Under the pieces are notes generated by a model that did not search any database, was not told the DNA's origin, and was given only the letters and a program-made list of their open reading frames with translations. Position numbers and translations under genes: made by a program. From an uncultured Victivallales bacterium (GTDB taxonomy: Bacteria > Verrucomicrobiota > Kiritimatiellia > UBA8416 > CAZWPN01), in NCBI GenBank assembly GCA_964635275.1, contig CAZWPN010000004.1, forward strand, positions 502 through 64,501: DNA of 64,000 nt, written 5' to 3'. Below are positions 48,269-60,428 of this stretch, in pieces (the first letter of the stretch is position 1; each line of letters begins with the position of its first letter).

Positions 48269-50905
48269 CTAGGCCCTCTTTCCGATAACGACGTCCTTGA
48301 GCAGATTGACAAGGGCATGGTATTCGAACGGCTTCTGCACAAACCCCGCCAGTTTCGTACCGCCGAACCTGCGGCACGCCTCGCTCTCGTTGTAGCCGCT
48401 GCAGAGAACCACCTTAACATCGGGCCGGATGCAAAGCAGTTGCTCGAATGTCTGCTCTCCATTCAGTCGGGGCATCGTAAGGTCCAGCAAAACCGCGACC
48501 ACCGAGTCTGCATGCTCCCTGAACTTATCCACAGCATCCTGACCGTCCACTGCAGTGACAACGCGGAACCCTATCTTCTCCAGAATCATACGTGAGATGC
48601 TCCGCATGGACTCCTCATCGTCCGCAACCAGAATAGTCCCTGATGCTTGCCAGAAATGAGCCCCCGTGATGATCGACTGCGGCAGATGCTCAATTTCCTT
48701 TTCCGACAAAGGCAGCAGGACCTTGAACGTCGACCCCCTGCCCGGTTCGCTGTAGACATGGATTGCGCCCCGGTGTCCGCGGACAATTCCGAGCACCGCC
48801 GCCAAACCCAGACCGCGCCCGCTCGCCTTGGTAGTAAAGAAGGGGTCAAAGATACGCCCCCTGGTCTCCGCGTCCATTCCGCAACCTGTATCCGACACCT
48901 CAAGAAAAGCGTATGCACCCTCCTGAAGCCCCTCGTTGATGTAAGTCTGAGACAGATAGTTCCTGTCGGCATCGACAATTCCGGTGCGTATGGTGATGGT
49001 TCCCGGCGTATCGCCAATCGCGTCCGATGCATTGGTAATCAGATTCATCAGAATCTGGCGGAACTGCGCCACGTCCACCTCAACGCTGGGCAGTGTTTCG
49101 GCCAGATCATACCGCACAATGGCCTTCTTGCTTATCGAGACCTGGAGAAGGTTGGCCATCTCTCTGACAATCAGATTGAGGTCCACCACCTTGATTACGA
49201 ACTTACCCTTACCTGAATAGGCCAGCAACTGCGACGTCAAATCCGACGCACGGACTGCGGCTCTCTTGATCTCCTCAACAAACGAATACCCGGGAGCTGA
49301 CTGTTCCATGTCCTGCAACGCTAGATCGGCATTGCCCATCACCGCCACAAGCAGATTGTTGAAGTCGTGGGCAATCCCACCGGCAAGGATCCCCAGGCTC
49401 TCCAGCTTTTGCCCCTGAACCATCTGCTGATGCAACTGCCTCTTGTCAGCCTCAACCTGCCGGCGCACCGTAAGATCACGGAACACCATCTGCAGCAGAA
49501 CTTCGCTGCCCATCGTGACCATGGACAGATTCATCTCAGTCTCGACGATAGACCCGTCGAGACGCCGGCACCGCCACTCTGCCACCGACGCCCCCTCGCT
49601 CCGCACCTTATCCATCAGGGCATCCCACAGGGCACGCGACTCCTCGCCCTCAGCTTGCATGGGCGGCAAAAGAGAGGCAAACGGGTGACCGACGATCTGT
49701 TCGCGACTCCCGCCAAACAGGGCCATCGCCCGTGTATTGCAATCCATCACCTGCTGGTCCTTCAGGACTACGAGGGCATCGCCGGCGTTCTCAAACAACG
49801 CGCGGTACCGCCGTTCGTTGTCCCGCAATGACTCCTCCGCCTTCTGCAAATCCCCCAGCATTCGATTGACATCCTCGCTCAGAAGGCTGATTTCGTCTTT
49901 CCCTACCACCGGCAAGCGAATCGCCATGTCCCCTGTCTTCCCGATCCGGCTCATCGTCTCGGCTATCCGGCTGATGCGTGAAACCACCATGGTCTCCAGA
50001 ACACCGAGCACAAGTAGCAACAGGGCAACACCGGTAATACCAACAGATAACATCGCCAAACGGACCGCGCGAAGGCCCTGCTTCATGACTTCGCGCGGCA
50101 GGCTGGCCCGCAGAAGGAGCGCCGCCTGCCCATCCACATCCGACAGGGTCGTATACGCCTTAACCCACTCGGGCGAGCTTCTGTCAAGGTGGTTTGGCGT
50201 CTCCGGCGATATCATGGAAAGCGCCTTCCCGATCCCGCCTGGTAGACCGCTCTCTCTCAGCGGCCAGATATCGAGCGGAATCTGCAATTCCCGCACAAAC
50301 CCCGACAAAACCTGCGCCGTGATCCGCCGGCCCACAATGACGCTCCCAGTAATACGCTCAACGCCGCCCTCTGAAGTAGCAATTGGATGCGAGGCCACTG
50401 CCATCGTTTCGCCTGAAACCACCACCAAACCAGCAGTGCGGTCCCGCGGACCGGCAAAAGTAGTGAACCGTGGCAGAAGCGAGTTCACGACGTCCGGGTT
50501 GAGCTGCGCGACATCCGCACTGTCGGCCCCGCATTGTCCCTGCCAGACAACCTCGCCTCCCTCGCCAACGTAGAGGATCATGTCGACGCGGTTGTCGTAG
50601 AAAACCGAGGGGGGAAAACAGGCGCCGATCTGAGCCCGCTCACGATTGGCCAACAGCAGACGAACATCCCGAAGCGTCGAACAATGGAATGCCACCGCAC
50701 CGACCCGGTCAACCTCGCGACGGAACGCCTCCTGACAGCGGGCGATGTCCCGCTTGGCGCTCTCCTGCTCCAGACGGACGAAGTTCGGAACGACTACCAG
50801 CCGGTTTAACCCGTACTCGAGCACCCCGTAGAAGACGAAGACTGCTAAGACGACAAGGGCTATACGCAATCTGAGCATATGGAGACGTTTCTTCTTGTCA
50901 AACAA
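48269..50905 (-). CDS. Hybrid sensor histidine kinase (TM + extracytoplasmic sensor, PAS, HisKA, HATPase, C-terminal REC)
   Basis: H-box AHDFNNLL, ATP-lid DTGCGMD...GRGLGL, and a C-terminal REC (ILVADDEE...LDLTMPRLNG). Confidence 0.85.
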   Translation of the reverse strand: MFDKKKRLHMLRLRIALVVLAVFVFYGVLEYGLNRLVVVPNFVRLEQESAKRDIARCQEAFRREVDRVGAVAFHCSTLRDVRLLLANRERAQIGACFPPSVFYDNRVDMILYVGEGGEVVWQGQCGADSADVAQLNPDVVNSLLPRFTTFAGPRDRTAGLVVVSGETMAVASHPIATSEGGVERITGSVIVGRRITAQVLSGFVRELQIPLDIWPLRESGLPGGIGKALSMISPETPNHLDRSSPEWVKAYTTLSDVDGQAALLLRASLPREVMKQGLRAVRLAMLSVGITGVALLLLVLGVLETMVVSRISRIAETMSRIGKTGDMAIRLPVVGKDEISLLSEDVNRMLGDLQKAEESLRDNERRYRALFENAGDALVVLKDQQVMDCNTRAMALFGGSREQIVGHPFASLLPPMQAEGEESRALWDALMDKVRSEGASVAEWRCRRLDGSIVETEMNLSMVTMGSEVLLQMVFRDLTVRRQVEADKRQLHQQMVQGQKLESLGILAGGIAHDFNNLLVAVMGNADLALQDMEQSAPGYSFVEEIKRAAVRASDLTSQLLAYSGKGKFVIKVVDLNLIVREMANLLQVSISKKAIVRYDLAETLPSVEVDVAQFRQILMNLITNASDAIGDTPGTITIRTGIVDADRNYLSQTYINEGLQEGAYAFLEVSDTGCGMDAETRGRIFDPFFTTKASGRGLGLAAVLGIVRGHRGAIHVYSEPGRGSTFKVLLPLSEKEIEHLPQSIITGAHFWQASGTILVADDEESMRSISRMILEKIGFRVVTAVDGQDAVDKFREHADSVVAVLLDLTMPRLNGEQTFEQLLCIRPDVKVVLCSGYNESEACRRFGGTKLAGFVQKPFEYHALVNLLKDVVIGKRA

Positions 50906-51553: not shown

Positions 51554-51778
51554 TCACTTGACTTCCGCTTTTTTCTCCACCGCCTTGTTACTGCAACTGC
51601 ACGCAGGCCCCTTGCACAAATTACACTTCGCGGAGTCATCCGTTTTCTCAACTTCACACTTCCGAGTGCTGCATCCTTCTTTCAAAGGGCATTTCCGCCC
51701 AGCACAACATCCAGAAATCATTACGGATGCCCCTATAACCAACGCCACAATAATAACAACCTTTCCGATCGTCCTCAT
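51554..51778 (-). CDS. Small Cys-rich lipoprotein (9 Cys in ~45 aa mature region; metallothionein-like?) in a low-GC islet
   Basis: Lipoprotein signal (MRTIGKVVIIVALVIGASVMISGC) with a lipobox ISG|C. An AAAGG RBS sits 9 nt upstream. The mature part is CCAGRKCPLKEGCSTRKCEVEKTDDSAKCNLCKGPACSCSNK. Gene GC is ~47% versus ~62% for neighbours. Confidence 0.55.
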   Translation of the reverse strand: MRTIGKVVIIVALVIGASVMISGCCAGRKCPLKEGCSTRKCEVEKTDDSAKCNLCKGPACSCSNKAVEKKAEVK

Positions 51779-52042
51779 ATTCATACCTTTCTTTTCTGAC
51801 AATTAACTTACTTAGATTTTATAAGCATGGAGAGTGCCAGCACACGTCACAAAAGAGTCATATGCAATGTAACACTCATGCCATGAATCAGATACGACAT
51901 GTATGGTTGGCGTCTCAAGAAGGTCAATGGCAGCAGGCGACTGTATCTTTCAGAGAGAGCGAGACAGAGTGAGGCGTGCGGGAAACAACAATTGAACCTC
52001 GGCAGGCTAGCCCAGCACCACGGGAATAATGGAAACCCGACG

Positions 52043-52543
52043 TCATCGCTCGATTTGCGCTGCAGCCGAGTTATATATATCCCCGCCGCCCTGAAGGTAG
52101 GATTCAAGGACCGCAACGGACTCGCTCCGCAGAACGTCACGGACGACATCAACGCCTCGCCGCCGCAGGCCTTCGACCCACCGCCGCGGTTTCTGTCCCT
52201 CATCGAAACCGATTGCGCGGGCGTCCGTGTCACGGGCGCCACACACCACGCGCCGCACACCCGACCATGGAATCGCACCCAGGCACATAGCGCAAGGCTC
52301 GGCGCTTGTCACCAGTTCAAAGTGCCGCCCTGGATCCGCTGCCAGATCGTGCGACCCAATCCGCTGCTGAGCCGTGGCCAGCGCAACCATCTCCGCATGA
52401 GCCATCGAACTGCGCCAGGAAACCACGAGGTTCACACCCACCGACACGAGTTCTGGACGGTGCCCGGCATAGACAGCGGCAGCGAAAGGGCCGCCGGTCC
52501 CCCTGGCTATGTTCTGCCCCGCCAACCGCAGCACAAAGCGCAT
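52043..52543 (-). CDS. CDA-family zinc deaminase, guanine-deaminase (GuaD)-like
   Basis: GGPFAAAV, HAEMVAL and PCAMCLGAIPWSGVRR align with B. subtilis GuaD (GGPFGAVI, HAEVTAI, PCPMCLGAIYWARPK), as does DTDA..GFD. Start chosen at MRFVLRLAG. Confidence 0.7.
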   Translation of the reverse strand: MRFVLRLAGQNIARGTGGPFAAAVYAGHRPELVSVGVNLVVSWRSSMAHAEMVALATAQQRIGSHDLAADPGRHFELVTSAEPCAMCLGAIPWSGVRRVVCGARDTDARAIGFDEGQKPRRWVEGLRRRGVDVVRDVLRSESVAVLESYLQGGGDIYNSAAAQIER

Positions 52544-52659
52544 GCGGTCCTCAATCGTTCCCCCCTCGCCACCGTGCCGCCGAACAAAGCCCAACACCCA
52601 TCCAGGAAGCTGCCATCGGATCTCGGATGGACACCGCAAGGTGGAATCCCCATGGAGCT

Positions 52660-53331
52660 TCATTGCCGCGCTCCGGCAGCGTCCATCAGCAGGCGGTAAT
52701 TGTCCGGGATGGGCAGTTCATCGTCCGGTGCCGGAAGCAGGTCGTCCGCCGTGTCCGGCTTTCTGTCCGGGCCGGCGGACTTCACGACAGGCCGTCCATC
52801 CTCCAAACGGTAGATGTAAGGATGCCGCCACGGATCGGGTCTGATCAGCGACACGTAGGGGCCGGACCAGTTGCTTACCCCGGGATTCAACACAAGCGCT
52901 TTGAAGCCGAAATTCGTGGCCGGGTACCCTGCACAGTCGATCCGGTAGAGTTCCAGCCCTGTTCGAAGAGCCGTCACCTCGCTTGACGCCTTCAGCACGC
53001 GATGGCTGAGCGTGGCCGAGAACTTGGTCCCTTTAGACCTCACCGCCAAGGCGCCGCCCACGATGGCTAGTGCCGCAGCCAGCGCAAGCACCTGCGCCGG
53101 CCTCCGGGTGAGAACTCCCGCCGTATTGGGAATAGCTCTGCGCTGACGATCCGCGTCCTTCACAATCCGAAGGCGGGTCATCTTCCGCTTGAGGAACGGC
53201 GTCCGCTGATAGGCCTCGGGTACCTTCATCCGCCGCCCGCAGAACGGACACGGCCCTGAGAGCGGCTTCTCTCCAAGGTCACCCTTGCAGTAGGCGCAGC
53301 GAAATCGAGGCATGCCTACCTCTCCTGCCAC
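52660..53331 (-). CDS. Zinc-ribbon + single TM + type II secretion GspG-like pseudopilin domain fusion protein
   Basis: N-terminal CxxC...CxxC (RCAYCKG...CPFCGRRM) and a TM (LALAAALAIVGGALAV). The C-terminal domain matches the GspG fold (ALRTGLELYRIDCAGYP...FKALV.NP..SNWSGPY...DPW..PYIY......SAGPD.KPDTADD). It lacks the prepilin GFTLxE leader. Confidence 0.65.
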   Translation of the reverse strand: MAGEVGMPRFRCAYCKGDLGEKPLSGPCPFCGRRMKVPEAYQRTPFLKRKMTRLRIVKDADRQRRAIPNTAGVLTRRPAQVLALAAALAIVGGALAVRSKGTKFSATLSHRVLKASSEVTALRTGLELYRIDCAGYPATNFGFKALVLNPGVSNWSGPYVSLIRPDPWRHPYIYRLEDGRPVVKSAGPDRKPDTADDLLPAPDDELPIPDNYRLLMDAAGARQ

Positions 53332-53333
53332 GG

Positions 53334-53744
53334 TCAGGGGTTAACGTTAGACAGCGACTGCGTCGCGAAGTCAATCCGGCGATAGTAGCAGTTGCGCGGC
53401 TCTCCCCGGCTGTTCTTGGTGTGGCAGATGCCGCCGCGGCGCGGCCGCACCTTGTACAATAGCGAGTTCTGCTCACAGTTGACAAAAGCCGACACCATCT
53501 CAAACGTTTCTCCCGACGTCTTGCCCTTTTCCCAAAGCTCGTTGCGGGAGGTACTCCATAGCACCAGCGTTCGCGTCTCCAGCGAAATGCGCATCGCCTT
53601 CTCATTCGTATAGGCGACGAGGATCACTTCCCCCGTGTCCGCATTCTGGACGGCCACGGGAATCACGTTCTTGCAGACAGACGCGATCGTGGCGATCTTT
53701 GCGAAATCCAACTTCAAAGTCGCTGTTTCTTCCAAGTCACCCAT
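53334..53744 (-). CDS. hisI: Phosphoribosyl-AMP cyclohydrolase
   Basis: HisI signature (VILVAYTNEKA...TRTLVLWSTSRNELWEKG.TSGE...C..NSLL.KV....G..CH). Start chosen at MGDLEE after a GGAGAGGAG RBS. Its stop is 3 nt from the next start. Confidence 0.8.
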   Translation of the reverse strand: MGDLEETATLKLDFAKIATIASVCKNVIPVAVQNADTGEVILVAYTNEKAMRISLETRTLVLWSTSRNELWEKGKTSGETFEMVSAFVNCEQNSLLYKVRPRRGGICHTKNSRGEPRNCYYRRIDFATQSLSNVNP

Positions 53745-53835
53745 GTTCACGTTCTCCTCTCCACATAGGGGCCAAACAATGCGCTTCACTGCCGTACGGC
53801 CCCAGCCGGCAGCTAGCACGCTACAGAAAAAGCAG

Positions 53836-54420
53836 TCAAGCCAGTTTCCGGATAACGGTCCGCACCACTCCGCCTATTTCCATGGAGCGCTGTGGCCGTA
53901 TCGGCCGGTAGTTGCGATTGGCTGGCTCAAGCCGCACCCCGCCATCGTCCCTGACAAAGTACTTCATCGTCCATTCGCCATCCACCTGGGCAACAACAAT
54001 ATCGTTGGTCTTTGGATCCACGCCACGTTCCACAAGCACAAGGTCGCCCGGATAGATCCCTGCCTCACTCATTGAGTCGCCGGTCACTTTCAGCATGAAC
54101 GTCGCCTCGGGCTTCTCGATCAGGAATTCGTCGAGGCTGAGCGTGTCCAGCAACTCCTCCTCGGCAGGTGAAGGAAATCCGGCCGCCACGGATCCCAGCA
54201 TGCGAAGAGCTCCGGTCAGCTTCTCCGTCGCCGCGACCTTGTGCCCTTTCCTCGCCACATAGCCATGCTGTTCCAGCTTCTTGAGCAGGCCATGCACCGC
54301 GTTCTTCGAACTGTATCCGAATAACGCCAGCATCTCATTGTAGCCGGGAAAGCGCCGCTCACGGGCATGAAAGGCCCGCAGCGTCGCCACTTTCTCCCTG
54401 ATATTGATTTCTCTTGGCAT
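53836..54420 (-). CDS. lexA: LexA repressor
   Basis: N-terminal winged HTH and a C-terminal S24 peptidase domain (VTGDSM...K). Confidence 0.9.
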   Translation of the reverse strand: MPREINIREKVATLRAFHARERRFPGYNEMLALFGYSSKNAVHGLLKKLEQHGYVARKGHKVAATEKLTGALRMLGSVAAGFPSPAEEELLDTLSLDEFLIEKPEATFMLKVTGDSMSEAGIYPGDLVLVERGVDPKTNDIVVAQVDGEWTMKYFVRDDGGVRLEPANRNYRPIRPQRSMEIGGVVRTVIRKLA

Positions 54421-59397: not shown

Positions 59398-59537
59398 AAG
59401 GCGTCCCCGACGTCCAGCCACCCTTGGCCACGGATGCGACCGCTACTAAGCAATGGCCTCAGCAGAACCGCCGTGCGCCCGTTGGATCGATCTTCTCTGT
59501 TCTTGCTTCACGCCGGATTTGCGGCAGAATACCGCAC

Positions 59538-60428
59538 ATGAACTTGACCGATATGCTGACCTACCAGCCATTCCACGGGCTCGCCTCCCTTTGCGTCTTC
59601 GTTTGGGGCGCGTGCATCGGCAGCTTCCTCAATGTCTGCATCTACCGCATTCCACGGGAACTTTCCATCGTTCGGCCGCGCTCCGCGTGCCCCGATTGCG
59701 GGTCTCCCATCCCCTGGTACATGAACATGCCAATCATCAGCTATCTGGTGTTAAGGGGACGCTGCAGCTCCTGCAAGACACGAATCTCACCTCGCTACGT
59801 CCTGGTCGAGGCGCTTACCGGAGTCCTGTTCCTGCTCGTCTGGCTTAAATTCTCGCCCTTCGGCATGCCGCCCCTCGGGCTCGCACCCGCCGAGAATGTC
59901 TGGATGATTCCCGTATACTGGATGGTAGTGGCAGGTCTGATTCTCGGGACATTCGTCGATTTCGAGCACCTGATAATACCCGACCGTGTGACGCTCGGCG
60001 GGATCGTTGCCGGCCTTGTCCTCAGCATGGTGGTCCCGTCGCTGCACGGCGAATCGCACGTACTGCGAAGTCTCATGCACTCGGCCATCGGCGCTTGGGT
60101 GGGTTGGTGCCTGCTGTGGGCTGTTGCCGTCCTCGGGGAGTGGCTCTTCAAGAAGGAGGCCATGGGCTTTGGCGACGTCAAACTTCTCAGCGCCATTGGC
60201 GCCTTCTTCGGATGGCAAGCCGTGCTGTTTAATGTGATCGTTTCGTCCCTGGCAGGGTCACTCGTCGGCGTCACTCTGGTCATCTTCGGTCAGCGTTCGA
60301 TGCAAAGCAGGATTCCGTACGGCCCCTACATCGCTTTGGCAGCCCTGATCTGGATGTTCTGGGGACACTCGCTCTGGGCTTGGTACGTACGCATGATCCT
60401 CTTCCGCGACGCTTCGACGCCGTTGTGA
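59538..60428 (+). CDS. pilD: Prepilin peptidase (A24 family)
   Basis: N-terminal zinc-binding CPDCG...CSSCK and the polytopic A24 core with catalytic Asp residues. Start chosen at MNLTDML. Confidence 0.8.
   Translation: MNLTDMLTYQPFHGLASLCVFVWGACIGSFLNVCIYRIPRELSIVRPRSACPDCGSPIPWYMNMPIISYLVLRGRCSSCKTRISPRYVLVEALTGVLFLLVWLKFSPFGMPPLGLAPAENVWMIPVYWMVVAGLILGTFVDFEHLIIPDRVTLGGIVAGLVLSMVVPSLHGESHVLRSLMHSAIGAWVGWCLLWAVAVLGEWLFKKEAMGFGDVKLLSAIGAFFGWQAVLFNVIVSSLAGSLVGVTLVIFGQRSMQSRIPYGPYIALAALIWMFWGHSLWAWYVRMILFRDASTPL

Follow-up and report, generated by a model that had tools for sequence, protein, structure and literature searches.

What is a GspG-type globular head doing on a protein that has no prepilin leader? 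The question is raised by a minus-strand gene in a 64,000-nucleotide stretch, referred to here as the window, of contig CAZWPN010000004.1 from an uncultured Victivallales bacterium. The product of the gene, called the ribbon protein below, joins an N-terminal zinc ribbon, a transmembrane (TM) helix, and a head resembling that of the major pseudopilins of the system for type II secretion (T2SS). A cleavable class III leader is the defining feature of pseudopilins and type IV pilins, and we know of no place in models of pseudopilus assembly for a subunit unable to leave the membrane. An earlier note on this DNA, made from the letters alone, had proposed a pseudopilin-like domain held by a cytoplasmic C4 zinc ribbon and an ordinary TM helix. 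The analysis described here leads, with high confidence in its structural and evolutionary content, to a bitopic inner-membrane protein descended from a GspG-type major pseudopilin. In place of the class III leader and its signals for cleavage and assembly, it has a basic cytoplasmic stretch of ~70 residues that starts with the C4 ribbon. The hydrophobic α1N segment survives as a predicted permanent signal-anchor in the inner membrane, and the periplasmic head keeps the GspG fold and calcium site without the inter-subunit contacts of Arg87/Arg88 and Glu44. As to what such a protein does, the overall best explanation, which is considered somewhat probable, is an uncleaved, stationary TM tether of pseudopilin ancestry.

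The case for pseudopilin ancestry begins with the head, which occupies residues 102-196 (52726..53010, minus strand). Residue numbers refer to the 217-residue form that starts at ATG 53313, except where the 223-residue translation is named. Pfam T2SSG (PF08334) matches residues 111-196 of the 223-residue translation with E=7.8e-16 and 58.5 bits (cutoff 21), and the GspG equivalog model TIGR01710 reaches 49.8 bits, below its cutoff of 88.85. The head is therefore GspG-like, and the whole protein falls short of being a GspG. An AlphaFold2 (AF2) run on 6 sequences gave a predicted local distance difference test (pLDDT) score of 49 and was discarded; all structural results come from the model built on a 63-sequence family alignment, which has a mean pLDDT of 91.4 and a predicted TM-score (pTM) of 0.61. 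In this model helix α1C covers residues 102-127, strands lie at 167-171 and 174-179, and the calcium loop of the head contains D183, T188, D190, and D191. Beyond the head, residues 197-217 (52663..52725, minus strand) form a tail that is poorly conserved in family alignments and includes a short C-terminal helix at 204-215. The best 13 Foldseek matches in the PDB are all major pseudopilins, among them GspG of enterohaemorrhagic Escherichia coli, EpsG, PulG, and XcpT, with E from 2.6e-5 to 6e-3, target-normalised TM-scores of 0.51-0.71, and root-mean-square deviations of 2.3-4 Å for crystal and nuclear magnetic resonance structures; nothing significant besides pseudopilins was returned from the PDB. 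A family profile run against PDB GspG chains gave E=1e-21 to 7e-18, with PulG (5wda) at E=1.3e-21. The GspG-type fold that the earlier note had seen in the C-terminal part is thus borne out by profile, predicted structure, and structural neighbours alike. GspG, PulG, EpsG, and XcpT share with the ribbon protein the globular fold (25-33% identity by Foldseek), the calcium ligands, and the length of the helix relative to the head.

Conservation within the head is uneven. In PulG, calcium is bound by D117, D124, and D125, and subunits are joined by salt bridges that run from E44 and D48 in subunit P to R87 and R88 in subunit P+1; these residues are highly conserved and essential for both assembly and secretion (PMC13081927). 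The calcium ligands are almost untouched across the 63 family sequences, with Asp in 63, 61, and 63 of them at the columns of D117, D124, and D125, respectively. At the position of E44, Arg is found in 34 of the 63 and Glu falls outside the five commonest residues. The D48 column is the only salt-bridge position still acidic (Glu or Asp in 46/63), and those of R87 and R88 have become Thr, Asn, or Ser (50/63) and Leu, Val, or Ile (35/63). A metagenomic control set of prepilin-type proteins keeps Asp48 (34/43) and Lys87 (31/43). With the PulG-type inter-subunit contacts lost, the head of the ribbon protein is expected not to polymerise.

The signals for processing are missing as well. The motif G-[FM]-[ST]-L-x-E (G-F-T-L-x-E in its classical form) is found neither in the window protein nor in any ribbon-bearing relative, the N_methyl model (PF07963) has no match in the window protein in a Pfam scan, and a class III prepilin motif is missing from every ORF (open reading frame) of the 64-kb window. 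Pro72 stands in for Gly(-1) in the window protein, and there is neither Phe(+1) nor Glu(+5). Gly at -1 is a requirement of prepilin peptidases, and pseudopilins depend on Glu5 to assemble. Because both residues are absent, the ribbon protein should be neither cut by prepilin peptidase nor built into a pseudopilus, as far as its sequence allows a prediction. A candidate enzyme is encoded in the same window: a plus-strand gene at 59424..60428, near the 59.5 kb at which the earlier note had placed it, is a prepilin peptidase of the PilD/GspO type (A24_N_bact, E=8e-35; Peptidase_A24, E=2e-19). It is not linked to the ribbon gene, and the presence of a PilD gene in the same genome was counted in favour of an uncleaved tether.

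What remains of the pilin N-terminus is the membrane segment itself. Only one Kyte-Doolittle peak is present, with a value of 2.2 from residue 73 (family mean, 2.4), and it coincides with the sole hydrophobic helix of the AF2 model at residues 72-95 (53029..53100, minus strand), followed by a less confident loop at 96-101. The single TM helix of the earlier note is thus upheld, and its description as ordinary is not. The family profile aligns with residues 4-126 of PulG in 5wda, straight through the membrane segment (PulG 4-25), placing the family Gly opposite PulG Gly14 and a hydrophobic column opposite Glu5. Compared by BLASTP with metagenomic pseudopilins of the classical GFTLIE type, the window protein is 33-34% identical over residues 73-203, α1N included, in an alignment that needs a 4-residue gap and sets Gln74 opposite Glu5. 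Neither of these registers supplies Gly(-1), Phe(+1), or Glu(+5), the aligned -1 and +5 columns being occupied by Pro, hydrophobic, or polar residues. Pro72 is present in 46 and Gly86 in 56 of the 63 sequences, with a spacing of exactly 14 residues in 56. From Gly86 to the aromatic Tyr/Phe123 there are 36-38 residues in 49/63, compared with 36 between Gly14 and Tyr50 of PulG. The lollipop geometry of pilins is kept, as read from these alignments, with a TM-to-head spacing equal to that of PulG within about 1 residue. Since the helix aligns with α1N by both profile and BLASTP and stands at a PulG-like distance from the head, it is best described by homology as a relic of pilin α1N rather than an ordinary TM helix.

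The orientation of this helix can be inferred from charge. The ~70 residues that precede it carry a mean net charge of +10.2 and those that follow it -2.4, so that the positive-inside rule supports an N-in/C-out topology, the arrangement for which the earlier note had suggested a check; a Cys4 ribbon also fits the cytoplasm. A different reading of the same segment makes it a Sec signal with a long n-region, removed by signal peptidase I with release of a soluble periplasmic head. At its end, the hydrophobic stretch of the window protein does have Ala88-Leu89-Ala90, just before Val91, and soluble tandem-head relatives with Sec-type signals exist. In most members, however, the helix ends not in an AxA-type sequence but typically in L-V-G/S-R, with a conserved Arg, Lys, or Gln at position 92, and a signal peptide due to be discarded would have little use for a conserved zinc ribbon and an n-region of 70 residues. 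Release of the head is accordingly rated very improbable, and retention of the helix as an anchor is preferred.

The zinc ribbon lies at residues 1-30 (53224..53313, minus strand), with Cys6, Cys9, Cys22, and Cys25 arranged as CxxC-x12-CxxC over residues 6-25. All four cysteines are invariant in the 63 homologues aligned, the window protein included, and the AF2 model has short β strands throughout residues 1-30 at pLDDT of about 91-95. Two CxxC knuckles with short strands between them mark the segment as a C4 zinc ribbon, predicted to bind zinc, and the earlier assignment holds. No Pfam or NCBIfam model spans residues 1-100 of the window protein. Generic zinc-ribbon models of Pfam give weak and scattered matches among 29 members examined (DZR_2 in 21, Zn_ribbon_4 in 15, and Zn_ribbon_3, with a best E=1.3e-6, in 14). 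Among PDB entries, the full ribbon is best matched, weakly, by two small zinc proteins, YfgJ (E=0.004) and 2jrp (E=0.04), and part of it matches the zinc ribbon of TFIIE-alpha (E=0.0025). The ribbon is followed by a highly charged, net-basic cytoplasmic helix at residues about 36-62 (53128..53208, minus strand; AF2 helix 40-60). Arg, Lys, Glu, and Asp abound in its ~20 residues, and the five closest members have R43, R47, I50, R56, Q57, and R59 in common. Proteins with generic N-terminal zinc-ribbon anchors (Zn_ribbon_3, DZR, DZR_2) likewise have a terminal CxxC-x(n)-CxxC, then a TM helix and an extracytoplasmic domain; the signature M-x-F-R-C-P-Y-C...C-P-x-C-G-K-x-M-x-x-P and the charged helix are features of the present family that set it apart from them.

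That the ribbon is a translated part of the protein bears on the position of the start codon. The minus-strand frame 52660..53331 encodes 223 residues if read from GTG 53331, as it had been in the earlier note. ATG 53313 lies six codons inside; it is preceded, with a 5-nt spacer, by a Shine-Dalgarno-like GGAGAGG read directly from the sequence (53319..53325, minus strand), and homologues begin with M-x-x-F-R-C or M-x-F-R-C at the equivalent ATG. For both reasons ATG 53313 is taken as the most likely start, giving a coding sequence at 52660..53313 (minus strand) of 217 residues with its stop at 52660-52662. The reading frame itself is real and only its start has moved. A further Met codon, at 53227-53229, encodes the conserved internal Met29 directly after C-P-x-C-G-K/R-x. 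Annotation from this codon is widespread: ~30 of the best 150 matches, and also P0001, P0003, and P0005, are called from it, which cuts the zinc ribbon off.

These annotations are the one point in favour of the idea that the ribbon protein is an ordinary pseudopilin with a mis-called start and a cryptic leader at an internal one. About a third of database entries begin at Met29, including P0001, which is identical to the window protein. Against this, no member has G-[FM]-[ST]-L-x-E after Met29, and all 4 loci that were extended by eye reach an upstream ATG that restores the ribbon. The 28 upstream codons are conserved and hold the four invariant cysteines, and they show 11 synonymous and 5 non-synonymous codon changes between the window and locus L001 and 9 and 6, respectively, between the window and locus L003. 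From this synonymous excess it follows that the ribbon is translated and under purifying constraint. A cryptic prepilin leader after an internal start, the outcome that would have overturned the earlier description, has next to no probability and was rejected.

The charged helix and ribbon invite another interpretation, in which the protein is a membrane-tethered regulator of the anti-sigma or ToxR-like kind: the head would sense, for instance, the pseudopilin pool or calcium, and the ribbon with its basic helix would bind nucleic acid or sequester a transcription factor. The order of domains (a small cytoplasmic metal domain, a basic helix, one TM helix, and a periplasmic domain) resembles that of such regulators, the N-terminal part has a net charge of +10, and the second gene upstream is of the sigma-70 family in loci L002 and L004 and is lexA in the window. 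Regulator neighbours are inconsistent, however; in a Pfam census of 117 ORFs flanking 26 family loci, Sigma70_r4 and Peptidase_S24 appear only twice each. Searches of Pfam and PDB profiles, moreover, found no match of the ribbon to zf-HC2 or to any DNA-binding family, and only to generic zinc-ribbon models. A regulatory role is regarded as unlikely, and the tether remains the preferred account.

The architecture is not peculiar to the window. A word-indexed homologue search returned 5 relatives only and wrongly suggested a rare protein; it was superseded by an exhaustive search with a profile hidden Markov model of 1.84 billion cluster representatives, in which 7478 proteins match at E<1e-3, mostly through the GspG head, and 122 clusters (50% identity) match at E<1e-30. 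Most of the best 150 matches span profile positions 3-198, ribbon included; ~90 of the 150 have CxxC-x(10-20)-CxxC near the start, and the remainder mostly begin at an internal Met or are fragments. The search for homologues of the same architecture called for in the earlier note has thus yielded a large family. Residues invariant in the 63-sequence alignment are the four cysteines, P131, D160, W162, Y168, G181, D183, and D191. The family signature runs M-x-F-R-C-P/A-Y-C...C-P-x-C-G-K/R-x-M-x-x-P, charged helix, R-K/R-P, a TM helix with Gly 14 residues on, and a T2SSG head, and the window protein, the first row of the family alignments, carries all of it. Named sources are metagenome-assembled genomes of Victivallales and Lentisphaerales (both Lentisphaerota) and of Kiritimatiellae, all in the Planctomycetes-Verrucomicrobia-Chlamydiae (PVC) group, and database names of members are "hypothetical protein" or "type II secretion system protein G". 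A neighbour-joining tree was built from 128 head domains. Of the 63 family heads sampled, which include that of the window, 61 fall into one clade, the only other members of which are the three heads of P0007, itself a ribbon protein. The tree is a rough distance tree of about 95 residues and suggests a single origin of the ribbon family.

Among the relatives are proteins with more than one head. P0007 (L012:7001-8398) has the ribbon and TM helix followed by three tandem GspG heads. Two heads follow a Sec-type or lipoprotein-like signal in P0109, P0120, and P0135; P0132 has two heads without an obvious N-terminal signal, and P0144 has five partial ones. A further variation on the theme is found at locus L044 (4497-6581 and 8100-8957), where three TM-T2SSG paralogues stand in tandem; two of these bear a different N-terminal ribbon (CxxCGYxL...CPECG), a motif also carried by two further membrane proteins near the array. 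The L044-type proteins share the three-part architecture of ribbon, TM helix, and T2SSG head with the window family and differ from it in the ribbon motif, the tandem arrangement, and the lack of a hisI nearby. Because their heads group with classical pseudopilins, they point to a second, independent fusion of a ribbon, a TM helix, and a pseudopilin head.

Upstream sequence was available for 35 family loci, obtained by exact-protein look-ups and by scans of genomes and metagenomes. In the census of 117 flanking ORFs introduced above, PRA-CH, the HisI domain, is found 18 times and tetratricopeptide repeat (TPR) families ~8 times. A control census of 128 ORFs from 26 classical gspG loci contained T2SSJ 5 times, T2SSM_b 4 times, and Secretin, GspH, and PilN 3 times each, besides the commoner families given below. 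By the abundance of T2SS genes in the control loci, the nearest relatives of classical type are true gspG genes within gsp clusters, a setting that the ribbon family has left.

Several of these results weigh against the tether. No T2SS or type IV pilus family is among the 25 commonest Pfam families of the 117 ORFs flanking family loci, and the 128 control ORFs include T2SSF 12, T2SSE 11, N_methyl 10, and MshEN 9 times. The TM segment is aligned by profile and by BLASTP in registers that differ by 3 residues, and the metagenomic prepilin-type control set is, like the family, variable at the E44 and R88 positions. Finally, a multi-head ribbon protein (P0007) and tandem heads behind Sec-type signals (P0109, P0120, P0135) exist. 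With no T2SS or type IV pilus genes at its flanks, the link of the ribbon protein to a secretion machine derives from ancestry alone, and the tandem-head and Sec-signal relatives mean, therefore, that the head is evidently able to work outside any filament.

These points lead to the main rival, in which the GspG-like head has been exapted as a general calcium-stabilised module for periplasmic binding or structure, with no link to secretion or pili, and the ribbon and TM helix are one of several interchangeable anchors. Such an origin is possible, and it comes out as nearly as likely as the tether. It would account for the absence of secretion and pilus neighbours from the 26 family loci when control loci are full of them, for the loss of polymerisation residues, and for the appearance of the same head in three tandem copies or behind Sec-type signals. 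The independent fusion of a different ribbon to TM-T2SSG in L044 also fits interchangeable anchors, as do TPR proteins as the only other recurrent neighbours. What an exapted head does not explain is why the pilin-like length and the conserved Gly of α1 have been kept at ~30% identity, both of which would be needless in a mere anchor; nor does any result here indicate a ligand or an alternative partner.

In the favoured account, that of the stationary tether, the calcium-stabilised head would present a pseudopilin-like surface and bind a partner in the periplasm; the most plausible candidates are pseudopilins and, in a T2SS or type IV pilus machine, the base or the platform. The charged helix gives the impression of a stiff spacer that would hold the ribbon away from the membrane, where the zinc ribbon may bind a cytoplasmic partner. 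That the periplasmic partner is the pseudopilus machinery is put forward only tentatively; the reason to look to machinery that still handles pseudopilins is the conserved geometry of α1, and gene context lends it no support. A yet more specific and rather doubtful proposal makes the family a functionally new class among the components of bacterial type IV filaments, a permanently held "stop" or "anchor" pseudopilin that would dock at the base of the pseudopilus by its α1N-like helix and head, with the ribbon coupling the filament to a cytoplasmic factor. Such a protein would set the length of the filament, anchor it, or report its state across the membrane.

A precedent for this mode of action comes from archaea. 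FlaF has an archaellin domain without a class III signal peptide and has been proposed to be a static anchor (PMC4425475). FlaF (and FlaG) of the archaellum and the ribbon protein have in common a domain resembling that of a filament subunit, the lack of a class III peptide, an uncleaved N-terminal membrane helix, and a proposed role as a static anchor, and by this analogy FlaF may be the closest known case for how the ribbon protein works. The two differ in that FlaF has a β-sandwich, archaellin-like fold, no sequence relation to the ribbon protein, and no cytoplasmic domain; it is encoded inside the archaellum operon, and its partner, the surface layer (S-layer), is known. Relative to GspG itself, the ribbon protein has no class III leader, carries a 70-residue zinc-ribbon extension, has Arg at the E44 position and uncharged residues at those of R87 and R88, scores below the TIGR01710 cutoff, and has no gsp-operon context in the loci surveyed.

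Which account is correct matters beyond this family. If the ribbon protein still engages a secretion or pilus machine, it would be a bacterial counterpart of archaeal FlaF and a handle on the control of pseudopilus length and anchoring; if it has no such link, the pseudopilin head would be reusable as a free-standing periplasmic module. Under either account, "GspG" labels combined with truncation at the internal Met lead to a miscount of T2SS components in genomes of Lentisphaerota and Kiritimatiellota. The parts of the protein (GspG head, zinc ribbon, and pilin helix) are known; their combination, its conservation in >100 clusters of two PVC phyla, and its separation from gsp operons were not found described. 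The ribbon-TM-GspG-head architecture was likewise not found in Pfam, NCBIfam, or full-text literature searches aimed at it, in a coverage that leaves most subscription journals outside.

The most constant feature of the genomic setting is hisI. In the window, the gene for phosphoribosyl-AMP cyclohydrolase (136 residues; PRA-CH, E=5e-21; 1ZPS, E=1e-19) lies directly upstream at 53334..53744 (minus strand). Translational coupling over 3 nt had been claimed for this pair in the earlier note; from ATG 53313, the gap to the hisI stop at 53334-53336 is 20 nt, and the ribbon gene has its own Shine-Dalgarno sequence. The clear overlap is with the downstream gene, the ATG of which shares ATGA (52660-52663) with the stop of the ribbon gene. 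Across the family, the gene directly upstream, on the same strand, is hisI in 27 of the 35 loci, at gaps of 10-537 bp and with HisI sequences 57-93% identical to that of the window. No hisI was found within up to 5 kb upstream in the subclade L030-L033, L035, and L036, nor in L034 or L044, and it is near none of ~45 classical pseudopilin loci.

So frequent a neighbour raises the prospect of a HisI-coupled function, in which conservation of the pair stems from an interaction, physical or regulatory, such as one that recruits HisI to the membrane. Its recurrence while other neighbours vary, together with its absence from classical loci, speaks for this idea. The same HisI variant, however, occurs in a his operon without a ribbon gene (L093) and ahead of unrelated genes elsewhere (L094, L095), a whole subclade of the family plus L034 does without it, and adjacency can be synteny inherited within one lineage. 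A functional coupling is therefore considered quite improbable. The pairing is frequent and not obligatory in either direction, and is treated as conserved synteny and probably co-transcription.

The HisI variant itself is of some interest. It reads V-N-C-E-Q-N-S where HisI of M. thermautotrophicus (1ZPS) has V-D-C-D-G-D-A, in which D-C-D-G-D supplies the Asp triad that binds Mg. Ahead of the last Cys the variant has an insert of 5 residues, and it scores below both NCBIfam HisI cutoffs. It is very common, with 6067 matches at E<1e-10 and 71-92% identity across the 120 best clusters listed. At L093 (6001-6468) it closes a hisD-hisC-hisB-hisA/F-hisI operon that is followed by a DUF4282 gene, an arrangement that led to rejection of the window HisI as a neofunctionalised paralogue. 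At L094 and L095 it follows lexA.

Farther upstream in the window, lexA occupies 53836..54420 (minus strand; TIGR00498, 119 bits, cutoff 110.95). The lexA-proximal gene string of the earlier note is thereby confirmed, TIGR00498 and PRA-CH having established the identities of lexA and hisI. Direct adjacency of lexA upstream of hisI on the same strand is seen in the window (53334-54420) and on two unrelated long contigs (L094:5323-6411 and L095:4011-5050); at L034, lexA adjoins the ribbon gene itself, on the opposite strand. On the other side of the ribbon gene is a gene of the cytidine/deoxycytidylate deaminase fold (52043..52663, minus strand; dCMP_cyt_deam_1, E=2.5e-12). This neighbour, weakly TadA/RibD-like and far below NCBIfam cutoffs, is the same in the closest loci, L001 and L003. 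There is weak evidence that the stretch lexA-hisI-ribbon-deaminase is a single operon: a promoter and terminator scan found no minus-strand terminator from lexA to the deaminase-fold gene, and the only promoter-like site it found there was a weak internal one in hisI.

TPR-repeat proteins, the sole recurrent neighbours besides hisI, are encoded at L006:1914-3179, L008:9193-10452, and L024:5696-6958, and upstream in L030, L032, and L033. At L006 the start of the TPR gene overlaps the stop of the ribbon gene, and in the subclade without hisI a TPR protein of ~950 residues is encoded divergently upstream. By the Pfam census that subclade adjoins TPR and probably MotA/ExbB-type genes, which are uninformative because they lie on the opposite strand. 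Elsewhere in the window, a minus-strand ORF at 51554-51802 encodes 82 residues with a lipoprotein-like N-terminus (…SVMISGC), 11 Cys, and no Pfam match. A hybrid histidine kinase of the order CHASE4-HAMP-PAS-HisKA-HATPase-receiver is encoded at 48269-50905 (minus strand), and its position relative to the ribbon gene is kept at L001 (L001:1902-4511).

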